Source of the DNA: Candidatus Latescibacterota bacterium
GTDB taxonomy: Bacteria; Latescibacterota; UBA2968; GCA-2709665
Direction of reading: 5' to 3'
DNA: 64,000 nt
Assembly (NCBI GenBank): GCA_965222075.1
Contig: OZ244937.1
Coordinates: 1,248,001 to 1,312,000 of the forward strand
A program made the translations under genes and the position numbers. Position 1 is the first letter of the stretch. Every line of letters begins with the position of its first letter. The notes under the pieces were generated by a model. It worked only from the letters and a program-made list of their open reading frames with translations. It was not told the DNA's origin and ran no database searches. Below, piece by piece: positions 16,831 to 55,741 of the stretch.

Positions 16831-16906
16831 GCCCCTGTAGCTCAGAGGATAGAGCAGCGGATTCCTAATCCGTTGGTCGGGTGTTCGAGTCACCCCAGGG
16901 GTACCA
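16831..16906 (+). tRNA. tRNA-Arg (anticodon CCT)
   Basis: GCCCCTG acceptor / CAGGGGT-A-CCA, D arm TAGCTCAG..GGATAGAGC, anticodon arm GCGGA-TTCCTAA-TCCGT, T loop GTTCGAGTC. Confidence 0.97.
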
Positions 16907-49914: not shown

Positions 49915-50613
49915 CTACGGGGTATTCAAGCATCTGTATTTGAAGATTGTAAAGAGGATTTTCCAACCTGCTTTCAGGGTTCCTTTCACCGTACCGGTAA
50001 TTTTGGAAACGCCAATTCGACGTCGGTAGCTTACCGGCACCTCCTCTATTTTCAGTCCCTGCCTGGCCGCTTTGACCTGCATTTCCACGGTCCATCCAAA
50101 CGTCTTATCCTGCATATCCAGTTCTTTGAGTACCGGATAGCGAACCGCCCGGAAGGGTCCCAGGTCGGTATACCGCGTGCGGAAGAGACACCGGATGAGC
50201 CGGGTGGCCAGCCAGTTGCCGAACCAGGCCTGAGGCAGGAGCGCCCCGGGTTCCCTGCGGCCCAGGATGCGGGAACCGATCACGAGGTCGGCGCGGTGCT
50301 GGAGGATGGGGCCCACCAGATGGGGCATTTCGTCGGGGTGGTCGCTGTAGTCTCCGTCCAGAAAGACTACGATATCGGGCCGATTCAGGGCAGCCATACC
50401 CGCCAGACAGGCAAAGCCGTATCCTCTTTGGTCCTCCCGCACGATACGGGCGCCCATTTCGGCGGCCAGCCGGGCGGTTTGATCGGTTGACCCGTTGTCT
50501 ACCACCACGACCTCTGTGACAAGGCCGGAGGGGATATCGGCGATCACGTTCCGGATGGCCTCTTGTTCGTTGAACACGGGAATGATGACGGAGATGCGCG
50601 GAGAGGAGGACAT
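49915..50613 (-). CDS. Family 2 glycosyltransferase
   Basis: SVIIPVFNE, VVDNGSTD, FLDGD, TDLGPFRA, GWTVEMQ. Confidence 0.92.
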   Translation of the reverse strand: MSSSPRISVIIPVFNEQEAIRNVIADIPSGLVTEVVVVDNGSTDQTARLAAEMGARIVREDQRGYGFACLAGMAALNRPDIVVFLDGDYSDHPDEMPHLVGPILQHRADLVIGSRILGRREPGALLPQAWFGNWLATRLIRCLFRTRYTDLGPFRAVRYPVLKELDMQDKTFGWTVEMQVKAARQGLKIEEVPVSYRRRIGVSKITGTVKGTLKAGWKILFTIFKYRCLNTP

Positions 50614-50663
50614 GGGATTTCGGATCTCTGCTTTGCTGGATGCTACGTCTATACCGCCTCTTT

Positions 50664-51857
50664 CTAACCCCCAGACCCTGCTTTTCTGAGGGTCTCGGGG
50701 ACAAGGAGGGCAAAGGTGCCGACGGCCAGGAGGCCGATGCCGGAAATGGCAAAGGTGGCGGCGGAGAGGCTGAGGAGGTCTGCGATGCCCCCTACAACCA
50801 GCGGGCTGCCCATGTCCCCGCCATCTCCGATGAGCCGCCAGATGGCCAGGAATTCGCCTATGGATTCTCCGGGCGCCAGGTCGGCGCCCAGGGTCATCAT
50901 AGACCCCGAGCCGAGGCCGTTTCCCAGCCCGATGACGCTGGTGGCCAGGAGCAGGCCGAAAAAGCTGCCGGTGAACGGGATGAGGCTCATGCCCACCGTC
51001 TGAGTGAGGAAGCTGGGTACAGTGGCGTATTTTCGCCCGTACCGGTCCATCATCAGGCCGGCAGGGTAGAACATGGACATATCGAGGAAGGCGGAGACGC
51101 TGAGGATCCATCCGACGGCCTGGACGTTCAGCCCGATGATGTCGGCGGCGTAGAGCGGGACAATGACGTGCCGGCCTTTTCGGAGCGTCTGGGCAAAGAG
51201 CTGCCCCGAACCCGCTGTGGCCAGCTGCCGGTAGTGAGATTTGAAGACGCCAAAGAGGTGGCCCAGTTGTCCCTCTGGTGCGGAACCGGACACGCGGGTT
51301 TTTTCGATGGTGAGCGCCGAGGTGACGATCGTCAGAACGGCCAGTCCGGCATAGATGAGAAAGGCGCTCTTGAGCCCGTACAGGGCGCCAAACACACCCC
51401 CGACCGCGGGGCCTGCGAAGGTGCCGATGCGGTTGATGCCTCCAAAGACCGAGATGGCCCGGCCCCGCTGATAGGGGGATGTGACGCTGGCCAGATAGGT
51501 ATGGCGGGAGATGTTCCAGAGGGCGCCGCCGATTCCAGCGGCAAGACGATAGAGGACGACCTCGAAGACGGTCTGCGCCCAGACAAGGGCCAGGACGGAA
51601 AGGGCAACACAGGTGACGCCGAAGACCATAACCGGTTTTCTGCCGATTTTCCTGAGGAGGATGCCGGTGGGGAGATCGCCTGTCAGGTGCCCGATTCCTT
51701 CGGCGGCCAGGATGAGTCCGATCAGGCCATAAGAGGTGGCAAACGATTTGGCATAGAGGGGCAGGATGGGAATGATCATCCCGCGACCAAAGGAGAGAAT
51801 GAGGGTGGGGAGGTAGACGGGAAGGATGAGGCGGGTGCGGTTGTTTGCCTGGCTCAT
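50664..51857 (-). CDS. MFS transporter
   Basis: About 12 TM segments; motif A variants LRKIGRK and MDRYGRK. Confidence 0.9.
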   Translation of the reverse strand: MSQANNRTRLILPVYLPTLILSFGRGMIIPILPLYAKSFATSYGLIGLILAAEGIGHLTGDLPTGILLRKIGRKPVMVFGVTCVALSVLALVWAQTVFEVVLYRLAAGIGGALWNISRHTYLASVTSPYQRGRAISVFGGINRIGTFAGPAVGGVFGALYGLKSAFLIYAGLAVLTIVTSALTIEKTRVSGSAPEGQLGHLFGVFKSHYRQLATAGSGQLFAQTLRKGRHVIVPLYAADIIGLNVQAVGWILSVSAFLDMSMFYPAGLMMDRYGRKYATVPSFLTQTVGMSLIPFTGSFFGLLLATSVIGLGNGLGSGSMMTLGADLAPGESIGEFLAIWRLIGDGGDMGSPLVVGGIADLLSLSAATFAISGIGLLAVGTFALLVPETLRKAGSGG

Positions 51858-51906
51858 GGACTTTCCGGGCGTTGAATTGGGGCGTATGAAGCTGAATAAG
51901 GCCTAT

Positions 51907-51935
51907 ATAGTAACGACCTGGGGGGGATTTGTCAA
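51907..51935 (-). promoter_or_regulatory. Sigma70 promoter of the MFS-GT2 operon
   Basis: Minus strand TTGACA-17 nt-TACTAT. Confidence 0.6.
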
Positions 51936-52014
51936 GGAGGAGCTGGGGCATTGACACCCGATCAGGTGAGGCTGTTTCGCCACAACGGGAATGCATAGGG
52001 GTGTGGGAGGGTAT

Positions 52015-52737
52015 GTGACGCCCGAGACCGTCTTCTATGTGAGCGGGGTGATGTGGCTGGCTGCGAGCCTTCAGGGAGTGGCGGGGTTCGGATTTATGAT
52101 GCTGGCGGTACCGGGGTTGATCCTGGGGGCGCCGGCACAGGTGGTGGTTCCGGCCCTGATCCTGACCTGGCTGCCGCTTGGAACGGTGCAGGTGGTGCAG
52201 CTCCGCGCGAATGTAGACTGGGGGCTCCTGGCCTATCTGGTGGCCAGCGCCGCGTTCGGGTTGCCCCTGGGAGCGGTCATTTTGCGGGAGACCGATACGG
52301 AGACCATGCGGCGGGGAATTGGCGGGGTGTTGGTGGCGCTGGCCCTGCTTCTTCAGATGAAGCCCGGGGTGCCGCTTCGGCGTGAGGGGGCCGCCCGGGT
52401 GGGCGCAGGGTTTATCGCCGGGGTACTGGCGTCCGGCACGTCGGTGTCCGGGCCGCCCCTGGTGCTGCTGGGGGTGAAGCAGCGGTGGCAGGCGGACCGG
52501 TTTCGGGCGACGCTGCCGGCCTATTTTCTGGCGGTCTCCGTATTGTGCCTGCCCATCCACTGGGAAATGGATTTGCTGAACCGGGCAAGTGTTCAGCTGG
52601 CGGTAAGCGGCCTGCCCGGTGTGGTCCTGGGATATGCGACGGGAATCTGGCTGAAGGGGCGGGTCGGCGAAGCGTGGTTCCGGTGGGTGGTCCTGGGGAT
52701 GGTGATGGGGGGAGGGCTGGCGGCGGTGATGCTGTGA
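52015..52737 (+). CDS. TauE/SafE sulfite exporter family protein
   Basis: QGVAGFGF, GLPLG, SVSGPP, FRATL; hydrophobic. Confidence 0.85.
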   Translation: MTPETVFYVSGVMWLAASLQGVAGFGFMMLAVPGLILGAPAQVVVPALILTWLPLGTVQVVQLRANVDWGLLAYLVASAAFGLPLGAVILRETDTETMRRGIGGVLVALALLLQMKPGVPLRREGAARVGAGFIAGVLASGTSVSGPPLVLLGVKQRWQADRFRATLPAYFLAVSVLCLPIHWEMDLLNRASVQLAVSGLPGVVLGYATGIWLKGRVGEAWFRWVVLGMVMGGGLAAVML

Positions 52738-52810
52738 AATAAGATATGGTTGTGCCACTTCACTGGAGGATCCGATGGACGCGGACATTTGGAGGGCAGG
52801 AGAAATCTCC

Positions 52811-52839
52811 TTGACATCCGGCAGGAAAAACCGTACATT
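52811..52839 (+). promoter_or_regulatory. Sigma70 promoter of the structured RNA region
   Basis: TTGACA-17 nt-TACATT. Confidence 0.7.
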
Positions 52840-52845
52840 TTAACT

Positions 52846-53336
52846 TGAATCGAGAACCGATGTGATGTGCGGCAGCCATCCGAAAAGGTTCGGGTTTCGG
52901 CCGGGCGGTTTGCGTTACATGCATGCTTTGTCAGAGCTTTCGCTGACGGGAATCCAAATTCCAAAAGATGTGGATGGCGCAGGCCAAAGGCCTGATTGAA
53001 CAGAACCGCGGATGGGAGTTGCGGGCCGTGTGAACCTGCGATAGGAGGGGAATATGCCACCGGACAGGTTTGTGCGGCCGCGATGCGATGAGAGGTATCA
53101 GGAGTTTCATCGCGGCCGTTGAAACAAGGAGGTCATATGCAGTCGGCTGGATTTGTGCGGCCGCGACGGTGGTGAGCAGGGTTGTTCTTCGTCGCGGCCG
53201 TAGCGTTTTTCCAGCAGATATTCAGACGCTGATACGGCTGGCGGACGTGTGGAATCAACCCCGGGGGAGTATCAGCATCTGCCGAAATAGCCGACCGCCT
53301 GGGCTGAGGTAGCGATGCGTCCGGGCGGTTTTGTTC
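52846..53336 (+). ncRNA. Candidate ~490-nt structured RNA or leader of unknown class
   Basis: Promoter, at least six stems, a duplicated hairpin with a compensatory change, terminator; no credible long ORF. Confidence 0.6.
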
Positions 53337-53339
53337 TTT
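53293..53339 (+). terminator. Intrinsic terminator-like hairpin
   Basis: GACCGCCTGGGC / GTCCGGGCGGTT 12-bp stem followed by TTGTTCTTT. Confidence 0.65.
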
Positions 53340-53388
53340 GTGAAGAAAGAAAGATGATCCACGATAATTCGGTGAGGGGAGGACGTGC

Positions 53389-54351
53389 ATGAAAATTGTA
53401 CTGTACCCACCGGTGAGCGAGGACCTGTATGAGCGGGTGCGGCAAACAGCGCCTGAGGCCGAGGTGATGATGGCGGATGAGGAGAACGTCATTGCGGCTG
53501 TGGCCGATGCGGAGGTGCTGTTCGGATTTTTTTCAAAGGAGGAGATCCAGGCTGCACAAAGGCTGAAGTGGATCCAGTCCACCAGCGCAGGGATGGAGAA
53601 GCAGCTCGATATTCCGGAGGTCCGGGACAGCGATGTGATCATCTGCAGCGCCAGCGGCCTGCACGCGATTCAGGTGGCCGAGCACGCCTGGGCGCTGACG
53701 GCGGCGCTCTTCCGCGGCCTGTACGTCTTTTTTCGGAACCAGCTTGCGCACCGGTGGCAGGGGGCCCCGCTGGCGGACCTGTACGGCGCAACGGCCGGCA
53801 TTGTGGGATTCGGGGGGATCGGCCGGCAGTACGCGCAGCGGGCGCAGGCTTTCAGGATGCGCATCCTGGCCGTGGACGTCCAGGGGGGAGACAAACCGGC
53901 GTTTGTGGAGTCGCTGTGGGGGATCGACCGCTTGGACGATCTGCTGAAGGAGGCGGATGTGGTATGCTTAGCCTGCCCGCACACACCGGAGACGGAGAAG
54001 CTGATCGACGCGAGGGCGCTGAAGCTGATGAAGAAGACGGCGTTCCTGGTCAATACGGCGCGGGGACCGGTCGTGGATGAGGCCGCGCTTATCGAGGCCC
54101 TGAAGGCGGGGGAGATCGCGGGTGCGGGGCTGGATGTGTTCGAGGTGGAGCCGCTGCCTGCGGAGAGCCCGCTGTGGGATATGGAGAATGTGATCGTTAC
54201 CACCCACTCGGCCGGCGGATCGAGCTACCGCCACCGGCGGACGGTGGAATTTTTCTGCGAGAACCTGAAACGCTACCTGGCCGGCGAACCGCTCCTGAAC
54301 GAGGTGGACAAGACGCTCGGGTATCCCCTGCTGGACCGGCGGGCACAATAA
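53389..54351 (+). CDS. D-2-hydroxyacid dehydrogenase
   Basis: VAEHA, GFGGIG, PHTPET, NTARG, GLDVFEVEPL. Confidence 0.92.
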   Translation: MKIVLYPPVSEDLYERVRQTAPEAEVMMADEENVIAAVADAEVLFGFFSKEEIQAAQRLKWIQSTSAGMEKQLDIPEVRDSDVIICSASGLHAIQVAEHAWALTAALFRGLYVFFRNQLAHRWQGAPLADLYGATAGIVGFGGIGRQYAQRAQAFRMRILAVDVQGGDKPAFVESLWGIDRLDDLLKEADVVCLACPHTPETEKLIDARALKLMKKTAFLVNTARGPVVDEAALIEALKAGEIAGAGLDVFEVEPLPAESPLWDMENVIVTTHSAGGSSYRHRRTVEFFCENLKRYLAGEPLLNEVDKTLGYPLLDRRAQ

Positions 54352-54412
54352 GAAGCTTATTCCTGGCATTAACATGTAGTAAATCCAAGCAAGCAAGATA
54401 AGGTGGTATTTT

Positions 54413-55741
54413 GTGGCTGAGATCAGGCCCTTTCGGGGCATCCGCTACGACACCGACCGGGTGGGAGACGCAGGACGGGTGGTCGCCCCCCCGTACGATG
54501 TGATTGACGATGCGCTGCAGCAGGCGCTTTATGAGACGCATCCGAACAATGTGGTGCGGATTATCCGGGGTCGGGACGAGGCGGGTGACTCCGACGCGAA
54601 CAACCGCTACACCCGGGCGGCCGAGGCGTTTCGGGACTGGCAGACGGAGGGGGTGCTTCGGCGGGACGAGGAGGAGGGGATCTACCTCTACGCGCAGGAT
54701 TTCGAGGCGATCACACCGGCCGGGCCGGTCCCCAAGTCCCGGCTGGGGATTGTGACGCTGGTCCGGGTGGAGCCGTTTGGAGAGGGATATATTCTGCCGC
54801 ACGAACATACGATGCCGGGGCCCAAGGTGGACCGCTTAGCGTTGATGCGGCATATCGGGGCGACGTGCGGACAGATCTTTTCGCTGTATTCCGACCCGGA
54901 AGGCCGGGTTCGTGATGTTTTAAAAGGGCATCTTGAGGGTGAGCCCCTGTTTGGGTTTGAGGACCGGGAGGGGGTACAGCACCGGCTCTGGCGCGTGGCC
55001 GACCGGGAAGCGATCGAGGGGGTGGCGGCGTTTCTGGCCGACAAGCCGCTTTTTATCGCAGACGGTCACCACCGCTACGAGACCGCGGTGGTCTACCGGG
55101 ACGAACGGGCGCTGGCCGAAGGGGTCGCCCCGGACGGACAGCCTTATGGGTACCGCATGCAGACGCTGGTGAATATGGACGATACGGAGGGGATGGCGAT
55201 CTACCCCATCCACCGGGTGGTGATGGACCTGGGCGCCGACGGCGTTGCCCGGCTTGAGGCGGGGCTGCAGGAGCTGTTCGACGTGGAGCGGGCGTCCCTG
55301 GGGGAGACCCGCGAGGCGCTGCGGGAACTCCGGCGAGGAGGCCGGCAACAGGTGTTCGGGTTCTGCACGGGGGAAGCGAAGGAGGTCCAGTACCTGACCC
55401 TGAAACCGTCTGTCGATCCGGCAGCGCTGGACAAAGAGGAACACTCATCGGCCTGGCGTGGGCTGAATTCGGGACTGCTGCAACTCGTCCTGGGACACAT
55501 TCTGGACCTGGATTCCGAGACACTGACCCGGGGGGAGAAGGTGAAGTTTGTGAAGGTGGAGGCGGAGGCGCTCAGCCTGCTGAAGGAGGCGCCGGACAGG
55601 GCCGGGTTTTTCCTGAATCCGGTGGATATGGCGCGGCTGCGGGAGGTGGTCTTGGCCGGCGAGCGGATGCCGCCCAAGTCGACGTTTTTCTACCCCAAGG
55701 TCTACAGCGGGCTGGTGATTCAGGATTTGAATGCGTTTTAA
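54413..55741 (+). CDS. DUF1015 family protein
   Basis: APPYDVI, ILPHEHT, IADGHHRYETA, MPPKSTFFYPK. Confidence 0.92.
   Translation: MAEIRPFRGIRYDTDRVGDAGRVVAPPYDVIDDALQQALYETHPNNVVRIIRGRDEAGDSDANNRYTRAAEAFRDWQTEGVLRRDEEEGIYLYAQDFEAITPAGPVPKSRLGIVTLVRVEPFGEGYILPHEHTMPGPKVDRLALMRHIGATCGQIFSLYSDPEGRVRDVLKGHLEGEPLFGFEDREGVQHRLWRVADREAIEGVAAFLADKPLFIADGHHRYETAVVYRDERALAEGVAPDGQPYGYRMQTLVNMDDTEGMAIYPIHRVVMDLGADGVARLEAGLQELFDVERASLGETREALRELRRGGRQQVFGFCTGEAKEVQYLTLKPSVDPAALDKEEHSSAWRGLNSGLLQLVLGHILDLDSETLTRGEKVKFVKVEAEALSLLKEAPDRAGFFLNPVDMARLREVVLAGERMPPKSTFFYPKVYSGLVIQDLNAF

Follow-up and report, generated by a model that had tools for sequence, protein, structure and literature searches.

Organization of the locus

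Within the window, a 64,000-nucleotide stretch of the genome of a bacterium of the uncultured Candidatus Latescibacterota, positions 52811 to 53340 of the forward strand hold a promoter-like site followed by two RNA elements, termed here module A (about 52845-53210) and module B (53224-53339). They lie upstream of two genes on the same strand, one encoding a D-2-hydroxyacid dehydrogenase family protein (53389-54351; Pfam 2-Hacid_dh_C, 7.4e-58) and the other a DUF1015 protein (54413-55741; Pfam DUF1015, 2.7e-85); with NCBIfam, all listed matches of the dehydrogenase fell under the family cut-offs and the DUF1015 protein had no match. With a confidence just short of even, we read the stretch as one transcript made of two independent modules, a new structured RNA followed by a ZTP riboswitch. 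The ZTP part (53224-53311) is already known, whereas module A is previously undescribed.

A scan of positions 52700-53420 against Rfam 15 returned no family at E<=10 for 52811-53220, the matches touching this stretch being at chance level (SNORD126, 15.7 bits with a cut-off of 55, and an opposite-strand RMST_1 match of 11.5 bits with a cut-off of 40). Five open reading frames on the two strands yielded 0 Pfam families at E<=0.1, which speaks against a protein-coding reading via longer ORFs on either strand and agrees with the initial annotation of this DNA, in which no credible long ORF had been seen. The dense pairing that it had described is also borne out, as the whole 501 nt folds better than shuffled sequences (z = -3.51; 0/100 shuffles equally good). 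We rejected tmRNA, RNase P and SRP RNA as identities, the genome having copies elsewhere above the cut-offs (205.1, 302.9 and 72.4 bits, respectively), as well as a CsrB/RsmY-type sponge, the CsrA family (PF02599) not being found in this genome (97.6% complete). A gene for EF-P is present in the genome. Searches of the literature on small or noncoding RNAs of Latescibacteria/Latescibacterota and on MPP leader peptides yielded no paper on such an RNA, nor any on small or noncoding RNAs of this phylum.

A ZTP riboswitch in the 3' part of the stretch

The 3' part of the stretch contains a ZMP/ZTP riboswitch aptamer (pfl motif; 53224-53311), which matches RF01750 over model positions 1-86 of 86 with 53.3 bits against a gathering score of 39 (E = 7.5e-06 in the 64-kb window and 8.4e-08 in a 721-nt stretch) and is one of two RF01750 matches in the genome. 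Both helical subdomains and the conserved 3' pseudoknot strand (CCGCCUGGGC type) are aligned at maximum posterior probabilities. The expression platform (53293-53339) folds into a terminator stem (53293-53330) followed by a U-rich tract, and comparison of the fold with the RF01750 alignment shows that the stem overlaps aptamer positions, using the 3' pseudoknot strand. A terminator that competes with this strand is the usual design of an "on" switch, so that the element, with the whole model matched and the curated cut-off passed, resembles known "on" switches in its platform too. The initial annotation had correctly noted the final hairpin with its U-rich tail and the GCTGATAC/GTATCAGC stem, which is present as inverted repeat I3; the GCAGAT/GCTGATAC stem and the terminator do exist, but they are the P1 helix and the expression platform of RF01750, which had gone unrecognized. 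Its proposal of a new ncRNA class is supported for the first ~370 nt, for which Rfam gives no match, but not for the last ~120 nt, for which it gives a confident one, to the known ZTP riboswitch with its terminator.

The riboswitch differs from the usual ZTP riboswitches in having no promoter of its own and in lying 20 nt behind another RNA module, and from the classic ZTP-controlled purine and folate genes in that the genes controlled here encode a D-2-hydroxyacid dehydrogenase family protein and a DUF1015 protein, which would tie these genes to serine and one-carbon supply. In genome G004, the ZTP copy (86% identical) precedes a MetH-like gene, a context of one-carbon metabolism.

The main reading of the initial annotation, a single new ncRNA class of ~490 nt over 52811-53340, draws on RNA-library contigs that span the whole stretch and on the presence of just one promoter-like site. 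We consider it next to untenable: the 3' quarter is a ZTP riboswitch, and G004 has the two parts at a distance of 1.6 kb, separated by a gene and a strong terminator, while in the other inspected genera no ZTP part adjoins the module A RNA. The RF01750 match and the separation in G004 refute the single-family reading.

Promoter and transcription

The sigma-70-type promoter-like site TTGACA-17-TACATT, already reported in the initial annotation, is present at 52811-52839 with 10/12 consensus matches and a predicted start near 52845. Two promoter-like sites were found in 52400-53700 against 0.5 +/- 0.7 in shuffled sequences, none of them between module A and the ZTP aptamer, and homologues have an equal arrangement of -35 and -10 elements (TTGACA-17-TAnAnT) ~35-45 nt upstream of the core. 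A scan for consensus terminators flagged one site, 52888-52906, which lies inside the core and is nonconserved (1 found against 1.0 expected in shuffles).

The initial annotation had proposed metatranscriptome data as a check on the ends of the RNA and on read-through; here, assembled contigs rather than reads, from four runs of one study labeled sponge metagenome, cover about 52858 to 53453-53510 and bridge 53215-53224. Their starts (52858, 52858, 52859 and 52866), being those of assembled contigs, give a weak hint of the 5' end. Contig depth, a per-contig mean in runs that were all from one study and were picked for holding 52811-53340, was 420-1385, compared with 2-7 for contigs matching the neighboring dehydrogenase ORF with 0-1 differences. 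No contig of the four runs covered 51500-52839 or 54448-55500, where absent cover proves nothing, and the mean depths of adjoining contigs gave no readable 3' end for the abundant RNA. The module A RNA appears to build up to a high level.

A conserved rod-like core

A small 4-bp hairpin (52849-52861) is present in the minimum free energy (MFE) fold, and similarly placed small hairpins were seen by eye in other homologues. Downstream of it, covariation defines a structured core, an irregular rod of ~170 nt (52867-53035). The rod is closed by helix P0 (52869-52873 with 53025-53029), continues through P1 (52876-52882 with 53009-53015) and P2 (52887-52891 with 53003-53007) and carries two apical hairpins (52930-52947 and 52949-52962); a conserved 9-nt internal loop separates P1 from P0, and an A-rich 4-nt bulge lies at the junction of P1 and P2. 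The initial annotation had closed a multibranch domain with the stem GCCATCC/GGATGGC, which the comparative data contradict: CCATCCG in P1 pairs with CGGATGG at 53009-53015 and not with GGATGGC at 52971.

In the MAFFT alignment (36 sequences), 91.8% of 610 cells for the 17 pairs of P0-P2 were paired, against 32.6-45.0% in slid controls, and 9 pairs had changed on both sides. For the whole rod (59 pairs), the figures were 83.0% against 37.5-44.2%, with 47 pairs changed on both sides, in an alignment that was fitted to the model and therefore leans towards structure. The initial annotation had proposed testing homologues for covariation, and covarying structure is indeed conserved in relatives. 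The ~195-nt core alone folds with an energy at chance level (z = -0.73; 42/200 shuffles equally good), and its structure therefore rests on covariation and not on energy. A pairing of the 5' GCGGC with GUUGC in the internal loop, suggested by the MFE fold, was discarded, as the partner is noncomplementary in genus g6 (by eye). The start-codon region described below is able to pair with the 3' strand of P0; those pairs are invariant and thus uninformative about covariation.

A conserved, putative ribosome-loading unit

The best-conserved block of the RNA is not the rod but a Shine-Dalgarno (SD)-AUG-Pro-Pro unit. The SD sequence AGGAGG (53043-53048), kept in both the model-based alignment (29 matches) and the MAFFT alignment, precedes mini-ORF 1 (53054-53122; 22 codons plus stop), which starts Met-Pro-Pro-Asp. 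An AUG-Pro-Pro start was found in 25/29 model matches and a TTG start in one more, and of the three exceptions one reads Met-Pro-Leu, one lacks a start codon and one is truncated. The second codon is CCA or CCG and the third is CCG, CCA or CCT, so that the third positions vary (AUG-CCR-CCN), while past residue 4 the peptide is not conserved and its length ranges from 6 to 32 amino acids. Positions 1 and 2 of the proline codons could be conserved as RNA rather than as peptide.

GC hairpin 1 (53074-53119; inverted repeat I1), with a 12-bp stem and without a U tract, begins at +21 from the A of the first AUG and folds somewhat better than most shuffled sequences (z = -2.05; 7/200 equally good). 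By motif position, the hairpin stands at +21 in 25/31 distinct elements, and in the remaining ones, by eye, at +20 to +22, save one in which no hairpin was found. Read from the sequences, its arms differ across genera while complementarity is kept, and about 12/31 elements have a U tract after it (by eye).

In this genome the unit is repeated in an 83-nt tandem duplication (direct repeat D2; copies 78% identical), whose second unit (53127-53175) consists of an AGGAGG (53127-53132) and mini-ORF 2 (53137-53175), a 12-codon frame that is not Met-Pro-Pro. GC hairpin 2 (53157-53210; inverted repeat I4) starts at +21 from the second AUG, has a TTTTT 5 nt past its stem and folds at -41.7 kcal/mol (z = -4.71; 0/200 shuffles equally good); hairpins 1 and 2 are the two ~12-bp GC stems of the initial annotation. 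Hairpin 2 is a probable leaky intrinsic terminator of the module A RNA, as predicted from the fold; the consensus terminator scan passed it over, and G004 has a second, strong terminator behind it. The second unit is conserved in genome G001 and in G004, whereas the other inspected genera show no conservation of a second ORF. A motif that the initial annotation had seen opening a stem three times resolves into one strand of P0 and two copies within D2. It is not a genome-wide repeat: its 15-mer has two exact copies in the 5.36-Mb genome, both at this locus, and with up to 2 mismatches it occurs at 15 places against 23 for a reversed control.

The SD/AUG-CCR-CCN/+21 pattern was found at 66 places in 57/168 genomes, against 6 places for the reversed control, with a single occurrence in this genome. 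A second, shorter RNA with a different body bears the identical SD/Met-Pro-Pro/hairpin module (6 genomes inspected); it is without the rod, and its attached domain is 3', compared with the 5' rod of the long form. Scanning of genome contigs for the pattern gave 71 loci, of which the 44 without a model match, including 9 in Acidobacteriota and several in Streptomyces and Mycobacterium, were treated as chance or unrelated.

Two alternative readings can be weighed against this unit. That module A is the mRNA of a functional micropeptide starting Met-Pro-Pro-Asp/Gly/Ile would account for the strong SD, the conserved start and the retention of the first three residues with synonymous variation. It is very improbable in our view, given that the frame is 6-32 residues long with no conservation between families past residue 4-5, that changes in genus g6 that keep the hairpin paired alter the peptide, and that a ~200-nt structured 5' region and high abundance would be unusual for such an mRNA. 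The second alternative treats the rod as the aptamer of an orphan riboswitch, in which a ligand would lock P0 and free the start-codon/SD region from pairing with the P0 3' strand, the mini-ORF would be translated, the hairpin opened and read-through allowed; in this genus the rod and the ZTP riboswitch would together form a tandem leader with two inputs. The stack of closing helices and the conserved internal loops are typical of aptamers, and in the RNAalifold-derived model the 3' strand of P0 pairs with the AUG-CC region (helix 12), while CCU pairs with the first AGG of the SD (helix 13), with changes on both sides in 3/3 pairs. Yet the putative sequestering hairpin has only about 6 pairs and large loops (about 3+3 in genus g6, by eye), the helix 12 pairs are invariant, no conserved downstream gene points to a ligand, and the short-form RNA has the module without the rod domain; we regard this reading as quite improbable.

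Distribution and genomic neighborhood

By blastn, the full length was found in G001 at 90%, and in G004 query 1-400 (window 52811-53210) was found at 75% and query 406-528 (the ZTP part) at 86%, at the separate places noted above. Covariance model R1 detected the RNA in 26/132 genomes of the class and model R2 in 48/151 genomes of the phylum, including 27/30 in f2 and 20/20 in genus g6; R2 gave one weak partial match in 15 genomes of genus g2 and one weak partial match in 36 genomes outside the class. As far as searched, the module A RNA appears limited to one class of Candidatus Latescibacterota, mostly with one copy per genome. The genes next to it differ between loci and frequently face it (PdxA, AP_endonuc_2, an enolase-like protein and, in genus g6, a 271-277-amino-acid protein), the next genes on the same strand differ by lineage (a CBS-pair protein, alanine dehydrogenase, an epimerase or a sigma-70-family gene), and no downstream gene is conserved across the loci inspected. 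Because of this variable and often convergent neighborhood, we take the RNA to be usually a stand-alone gene in most genera. It is in this genus that module A sits 20 nt upstream of a ZTP aptamer, and the attenuator leader that the initial annotation had suggested for the dehydrogenase-DUF1015 genes is a reading that applies to this genus and to no other, the RNA standing alone elsewhere. Taken together, the lack of an Rfam match, the covarying structure in relatives and the high-depth metatranscriptome contigs support the assignment of the first ~370 nt to a new RNA family of Candidatus Latescibacterota.

Abundance and stand-alone position also suit a rather unlikely alternative, in which module A acts in trans or binds protein as a stable housekeeping sRNA, for example as a 6S-like binder of RNA polymerase or some other RNP scaffold, and the SD/Met-Pro-Pro/hairpin unit merely stabilizes the RNA by parking a ribosome, as ribosome-binding stabilizer elements do in Bacillus mRNAs. 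The contig depth is high relative to the neighboring mRNA, the RNA has its own promoter and terminator, mostly in one copy per genome, and its fold is a rod of ~170-190 nt closed by the 5' and 3' ends; sigma-70-family genes (3 loci) and ferritin/Dps-like genes (3 loci) recur as neighbors. In core size, rod-like shape, abundance and possession of a promoter it resembles 6S RNA (RF00013), which was detected neither here nor elsewhere in the class (0/132 genomes), leaving the 6S role without an assigned RNA there; this absence says little, since RF00013 detects 6S in just 5/14 control genomes. Against a 6S-like identity, there is no similarity to the 6S model at E<=10, no conserved central bubble was identified in the predicted rod, the SD-AUG-Pro-Pro-hairpin forms a 3' extension foreign to 6S RNA, and the distribution is patchy (48/151 genomes), whereas to our knowledge 6S RNA is expected to be near-universal. 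Against any housekeeping role of the rod, it is the SD-AUG-Pro-Pro unit that is conserved best, and this unit also occurs on the second RNA, which lacks the rod.

DISCUSSION

Our preferred interpretation of module A, to which we give slightly less than an even chance, is that of a ribosome-position switch, operated by a Pro-Pro stall, on an abundant RNA, which in this genus would form the first stage of a composite leader. A ribosome would initiate efficiently at the strong SD and pause while making fMet-Pro-Pro, a step expected to depend on EF-P and on prolyl-tRNA; the leading edge of the paused ribosome would abut the +21 hairpin and leave it closed. Fast elongation, on the other hand, would carry the ribosome into the 5' arm and block the hairpin, preventing termination in the copies with a U tract, while a stalled or nonloaded ribosome would allow the hairpin to form, so that capacity for translation elongation would be read out in the 3' structure of the module A RNA itself. 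In most genera the switch would act on the RNA itself, a stand-alone abundant sRNA. In this genus the loading unit is present in duplicate and would be joined, at a distance of 20 nt, to the downstream module B, whose terminator would be relieved as ZMP/ZTP accumulates, that is, when 10-formyl-tetrahydrofolate is short, and expression of the dehydrogenase-DUF1015 genes would need read-through at both stages. A precedent exists in E. coli, where a polyproline motif ahead of the pyrL terminator raises termination in cells without EF-P, and a terminator 16 nt past a PPE motif in rsxC behaves like the pyrL case (PMC5021804).

The arrangement recalls pyrL of pyrBI and mgtL/mgtP of Salmonella in combining a short ORF and a strong SD with an abutting or overlapping GC hairpin or terminator and, in the case of the proline-codon leaders mgtL/mgtP, in having proline as the regulatory codons. 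It departs from leader-peptide attenuators in several respects: (i) the proline pair occupies codons 2-3, with a constant hairpin spacing of +21; (ii) no antiterminator alternative was recognized in the inspected folds of module A; (iii) most genomes have no downstream gene in the same orientation, a regulated one being apparent in this genus only; and (iv) a large conserved structured domain is attached, and the RNA apparently accumulates as an abundant species. Some of these features weigh against the stall switch itself, since a classical attenuator needs a downstream regulated gene, whereas most loci have a convergent or unrelated gene next to the RNA. The 170-nt rod, moreover, has no role in the mechanism as stated, many genomes of the class lack the family, and the folding energy of the core is no better than that of shuffled sequences. 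A variant that we find doubtful, and that would make the sensor the leader of no gene, is that these are "ribosome-trap" RNAs, abundant sRNAs that would load a ribosome on fMet-Pro-Pro before the +21 hairpin and so sense or buffer elongation capacity; the fraction of the RNA with a paused ribosome, or the ribosomes held, would report or buffer EF-P activity or prolyl-tRNA supply, and the 5' rod or the 3' domain would deliver the output in trans.

Module A can also be compared with the raiA motif RNA, an orphan large structured bacterial RNA with its own promoter and terminator. Like RNAs of the raiA type, it is lineage restricted, ~200-350 nt long, covarying in structure, encoded by a stand-alone gene and highly expressed, although it matches no Rfam family, and we know of no orphan large structured RNA that is defined by a conserved, translated-looking Met-Pro-Pro unit.

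To conclude, the signature of this RNA is very unusual in that what is conserved most is a Met-Pro-Pro start that looks translated and keeps a fixed distance to a hairpin, a feature common to two otherwise different RNAs. The element of module A is compact and directly testable in vitro. At this locus, another regulatory RNA appears to have captured a riboswitch behind it, which makes the leader one of two stages, and the dehydrogenase-DUF1015 genes may be under ZTP control, linking them to one-carbon stress. If the ribosome-pausing reading is true, the RNA would serve in nature, as a gene of its own, to sense elongation that depends on EF-P and proline.

A riboswitch and a separate upstream RNA

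The transcription unit that the initial annotation had placed at 52811-53340 begins with a promoter-like site whose presence we could confirm, TTGACA-17-TACATT (52811-52839; 10 of 12 matches), which is the sole plus-strand promoter-like site in 52400-53700, a region that contains 2 such sites versus 0.5 +/- 0.7 in shuffles. The claimed absence of a credible long ORF was upheld (five ORFs on both strands, none with a Pfam family at E<=0.1), as was the dense pairing: the 501 nt from 52845 beat 100 of 100 dinucleotide shuffles (z = -3.51), and both GC stems, the GCTGATAC/GTATCAGC stem and the final hairpin with its U-rich tail were all found. A scan of the full window against Rfam 15 at gathering thresholds returned two matches only, a tRNA gene (16831-16903, 67.2 bits) and a ZMP/ZTP riboswitch (53224-53311, 53.3 bits versus a cut-off of 39, with the full model covered), and the riboswitch was returned again by a separate permissive scan of 52700-53420 (E<=10). 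By its match to this model, the 3' quarter of 52811-53340 is an already known ZTP riboswitch. The GCAGAT/GCTGATAC stem is present, not as part of an unrecognised RNA but as helix P1 of the ZTP aptamer, and the proposed terminator does consist of a stem (53293-53330) and a U-rich tract but is the ZTP platform, using the 3' pseudoknot strand of the aptamer. Such sharing of the strand is the usual design of these riboswitches, in which binding of ZMP/ZTP leads to read-through. The genes on the 3' side encode a D-2-hydroxyacid dehydrogenase family protein and a DUF1015 protein. The source genome has a second ZMP/ZTP riboswitch outside the window (L023, G000:C1:2257277-2257363, 59 bits). The suggestion of a new noncoding RNA class thus fails for the ZTP part and stands for 52811-53220, for which no Rfam family matched at E<=10.

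The upstream RNA (approximately 52845-53210) and the ZTP riboswitch are, judging from comparative sequence, independent modules, since in genome G004, from another genus of the same family, they lie 1.6 kb apart with a terminator, a promoter-like site and a gene between them. When 52811-53388 was used as a blastn query against 61 related genomes, the full stretch was recovered at 90% identity from G001, of the same genus; in G004, identity was 75% over query positions 1-400 (window 52811-53210) and 86% over 406-528, which hold the ZTP part. There, the upstream RNA ends in a GC hairpin and a second, strong terminator, followed by a separate promoter-like site, a 462-aa gene, the ZTP riboswitch and a MetH-like gene. 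The 462-aa ORF (L025:4185-5573, minus strand), situated between the new RNA and the ZTP-MetH pair and served by that promoter-like site, has no Pfam family. Direct fusion of the upstream RNA to the ZTP part is particular to the genus of the source genome and G001.

Distribution and structure of the upstream RNA

A covariance model built from 5 sequences (R1) located the upstream RNA in 26 of 132 class genomes, and one built from 36 sequences (R2) located it in 48 of 151 genomes sampled across the phylum, usually as a single copy per genome; weak blastn matches in G003 and G058 proved to be the same element. By R2, it occurs in 27/30 genomes of family f2, 4/18 of f1, 14/64 of f3 and 1/2 of f4, and in 20/20 of genus g6, with one weak partial match among 36 genomes of ten other families. 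The one weak partial match among 15 genomes of genus g2, which belongs to the family of the source genome, falls in an apparent coding region and is regarded as chance. When one genome per GTDB species was scanned with a sequence pattern, 71 loci came up, 27 of them confirmed by R1 and titled Candidatus Latescibacterota/Latescibacteria (23), Gemmatimonadota/Gemmatimonadetes (3) or "uncultured bacterium" (1). The three loci from MAGs titled Gemmatimonadota/Gemmatimonadetes (L086, L087 and L108) have bit scores equal to those of loci from genomes of the source genome's class, and their record titles conflict with GTDB-based placement. Nine Acidobacteriota loci (L069, L070, L075, L079, L089, L090, L110, L120 and L123) match the degenerate pattern (3' block plus SD-ATGCCRCC) but not the covariance model; their number seems high for chance in a single phylum, and they could be a conserved gene start.

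The homologues all have a TTGACA-17-TAnAnT promoter, located approximately 35-45 nt upstream, and a rod-like domain, often with a small 5' hairpin ahead of it. Three stacked helices close the rod, in the window P0 (52869-52873 with 53025-53029), P1 (52876-52882 with 53009-53015) and P2 (52887-52891 with 53003-53007), with a conserved 9-nt loop between P0 and P1 and an A-rich 4-nt bulge between P1 and P2. These closing helices covary in relatives, a check that the initial annotation had proposed: in a MAFFT alignment of 36 sequences, the 17 pairs of P0-P2 were 91.8% paired versus 32.6-45.0% with the partner slid by 1-3 columns, both sides had changed in 9 pairs, and the observed covariation score was reached by 0 shuffles. 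The P1 strands of the source genome and genus g6 differ while retaining complementarity. For the whole rod (59 pairs), 83.0% were paired versus 37.5-44.2% when slid, and 47 had changed on both sides, in an alignment fitted to the model and hence biased towards structure. At the apex, the neighboring hairpins 52930-52947 and 52949-52962 keep their structure across families. Thermodynamics alone gave the core no support (folding energy z = -0.73). The GCCATCC/GGATGGC pairing (52971), claimed to close a multibranch domain, is feasible in this sequence, yet the comparative data favour another partner.

A Met-Pro-Pro start with a hairpin at fixed distance

The most conserved block lies outside the rod, approximately 25 nt 3' of P0, and reads (A)AGAGGAGG, 3-6 nt, AUG-CCR-CCN. 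Among 29 model matches, the start is AUG-Pro-Pro in 25 and TTG-Pro-Pro in 1, the three exceptions being Met-Pro-Leu, a second copy without a start codon and a truncated copy. The proline codons vary at their third positions (codon 2, CCA 31 and CCG 11; codon 3, CCG 22, CCA 12 and CCT 8) in 42 distinct rows gathered by a pattern demanding CCR-CYN, which fixes positions 1-2 by construction. Past residue 4, the peptides diverge in sequence and range from 6 to 32 residues. Since the peptides diverge and, in genus g6, hairpin-preserving changes alter the peptide, it looks from these alignments as if the Met-Pro-Pro start itself, not the peptide, is under selection. A GC-rich stem starts at +21 from the A of AUG in 25 of 31 distinct elements (33 rows less 2 spurious matches), by motif position; of the other six, five have it within +20 to +22, judged by eye, and no hairpin was found in one. 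The hairpin arms are widely divergent between genera and still complementary. In approximately 12 elements a U tract directly follows the hairpin, which is then the terminator of the RNA, and the others have a separate terminator downstream. A search of 168 phylum genomes for GGAGG, 3-7 nt, ATGCCRCC and the +21 motif gave 66 places in 57 genomes (reversed control, 6 places); a few of the 66 resemble ordinary gene starts.

The repeated motif that the initial annotation had pointed out is local and not dispersed: in the 5.36-Mb genome its 15-mer occurs exactly only twice, both times here, as the units of an 83-nt tandem duplication (D2). The first unit (AUG 53054, hairpin 53074-53119) has no U tract; the second (AUG 53137), not Met-Pro-Pro, has its hairpin from 53157, again at +21, with TTTTT 5 nt past the stem, and this hairpin is very stable (z = -4.71). 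Two Shine-Dalgarno/Met-Pro-Pro/+21 units on the same strand, 116 nt apart, in a genome of genus g30 (G120:C30:11866-12015) resemble the duplication.

A second RNA, of approximately 290 nt and first picked up as short model matches, carries the unit near its 5' end in six family f3 genomes (L158-L163, from G057, G119, G116, G117, G063 and G118; e.g., L159:4150-4560, minus strand). Here the unit stands behind a promoter and a leader of only ~55 nt. Conserved hairpins of another kind occupy the next ~170 nt up to a strong terminator, and the gene beyond has a new promoter-like site in front of it, with an ABC transporter operon with S9 peptidase following in 4 genomes and a HEAT/CBM9 protein with glycosyltransferase in 2. 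Genus g10 has both forms. Being carried by two RNAs with different bodies, the unit is modular and the common denominator of both.

Gene neighborhood and expression

The neighbors of the long form, rod plus unit, differ between loci, as would be expected of a stand-alone RNA gene rather than a leader. Upstream lie genes for TauE (source genome and G004), Hpt, a GFO/IDH/MocA oxidoreductase, a bifunctional nuclease, a sigma-70-family protein or ferritin/Dps; downstream and often convergent are PdxA, a xylose-isomerase-like TIM barrel, an enolase-like protein or, in genus g6, a 271-277-aa protein; and same-strand downstream genes vary by lineage (CBS-pair protein at 4 loci, alanine dehydrogenase, epimerase, sigma-70-family protein). 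The ~160-aa CBS-pair gene at L034, L039, L041 and L052 (family f2) is the only recurrent same-strand neighbor found. A 957-aa ORF (49915-52788, minus strand) has domains of glycosyltransferase family 2 only, at residues 730-919, and the long stretch N-terminal to them overlaps both the TauE gene and a plus-strand ORF of 411 aa; probably the true gene is far shorter, its extended frame being a high-G+C artefact.

Four RNA-seq runs labelled sponge metagenome, picked by presence of the stretch and coming from a single study (hence one observation), contained 85-91% of the words sampled from the stretch, and the metatranscriptome check proposed earlier gave coverage at contig level in all four. 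Within 51500-55500, the contigs over this stretch covered 52858-53510; 52866-53481; 52858-52983 and 52954-53465; and 52859-52972 and 52943-53453. These contigs had 0-1 differences and mean depths of 420-1385, and those of the dehydrogenase ORF, also with 0-1 differences, 2-7, depth being one mean per contig that carries neither strand nor ends. Contigs span the 53215-53224 junction, and there is no further promoter-like site between the modules. Within the limits of contig data, this fits an abundant RNA running from just past the predicted start through the ZTP aptamer.

Possible function

The new part is the upstream RNA, which has no Rfam family, the ZTP part being known already; full-text searches on Latescibacteria/Latescibacterota small RNAs or MPP leader peptides, followed at abstract level, yielded no description of it. 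The tmRNA, RNase P RNA and SRP RNA are each found elsewhere in the source genome, and CsrA is not encoded there. A 6S-like role, conceivable because the Rfam 6S model matches nothing in the source genome or in the 132 class genomes, is argued against by the patchy distribution and by the conserved SD-AUG-Pro-Pro extension. Alternatively, the rod might be an orphan aptamer in which a locked P0 frees the start region, a tentative reading to which helices 12-13 of the model-fitted alignment lend slight weight.

We infer that the unit is most likely a ribosome-position switch. It would join three ribosome-slowing features at fixed geometry, namely (i) a long Shine-Dalgarno sequence, (ii) a Pro-Pro pair decoded in the first two elongation steps and (iii) a stable hairpin. 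Codon 3 ends at +9 and the stem starts at +21, eleven nucleotides beyond codon 3; a ribosome whose P and A sites are occupied by the proline codons would have its leading edge just short of +21, and one or two more translocations would bring that edge into the stem. Efficient elongation, requiring EF-P (encoded in the source genome) and charged tRNA-Pro, would open the hairpin or block it from forming, while with the ribosome paused or not loaded the hairpin would stand and, where a U tract is present, terminate transcription. In E. coli, experiments show that a polyproline motif ahead of the pyrL terminator renders termination EF-P-dependent (PMC5021804), and proline-codon leaders such as mgtL follow the same principle. 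We take the upstream RNA for a probable leader-peptide/ribosome-stalling switch whose carrier, abundant and stand-alone, is unusual, though something more distinct is a real possibility. Within this genus, a two-stage leader would result, the switch acting first and the ZTP riboswitch second; in other genera the output of the switch may act on the RNA itself or in trans.
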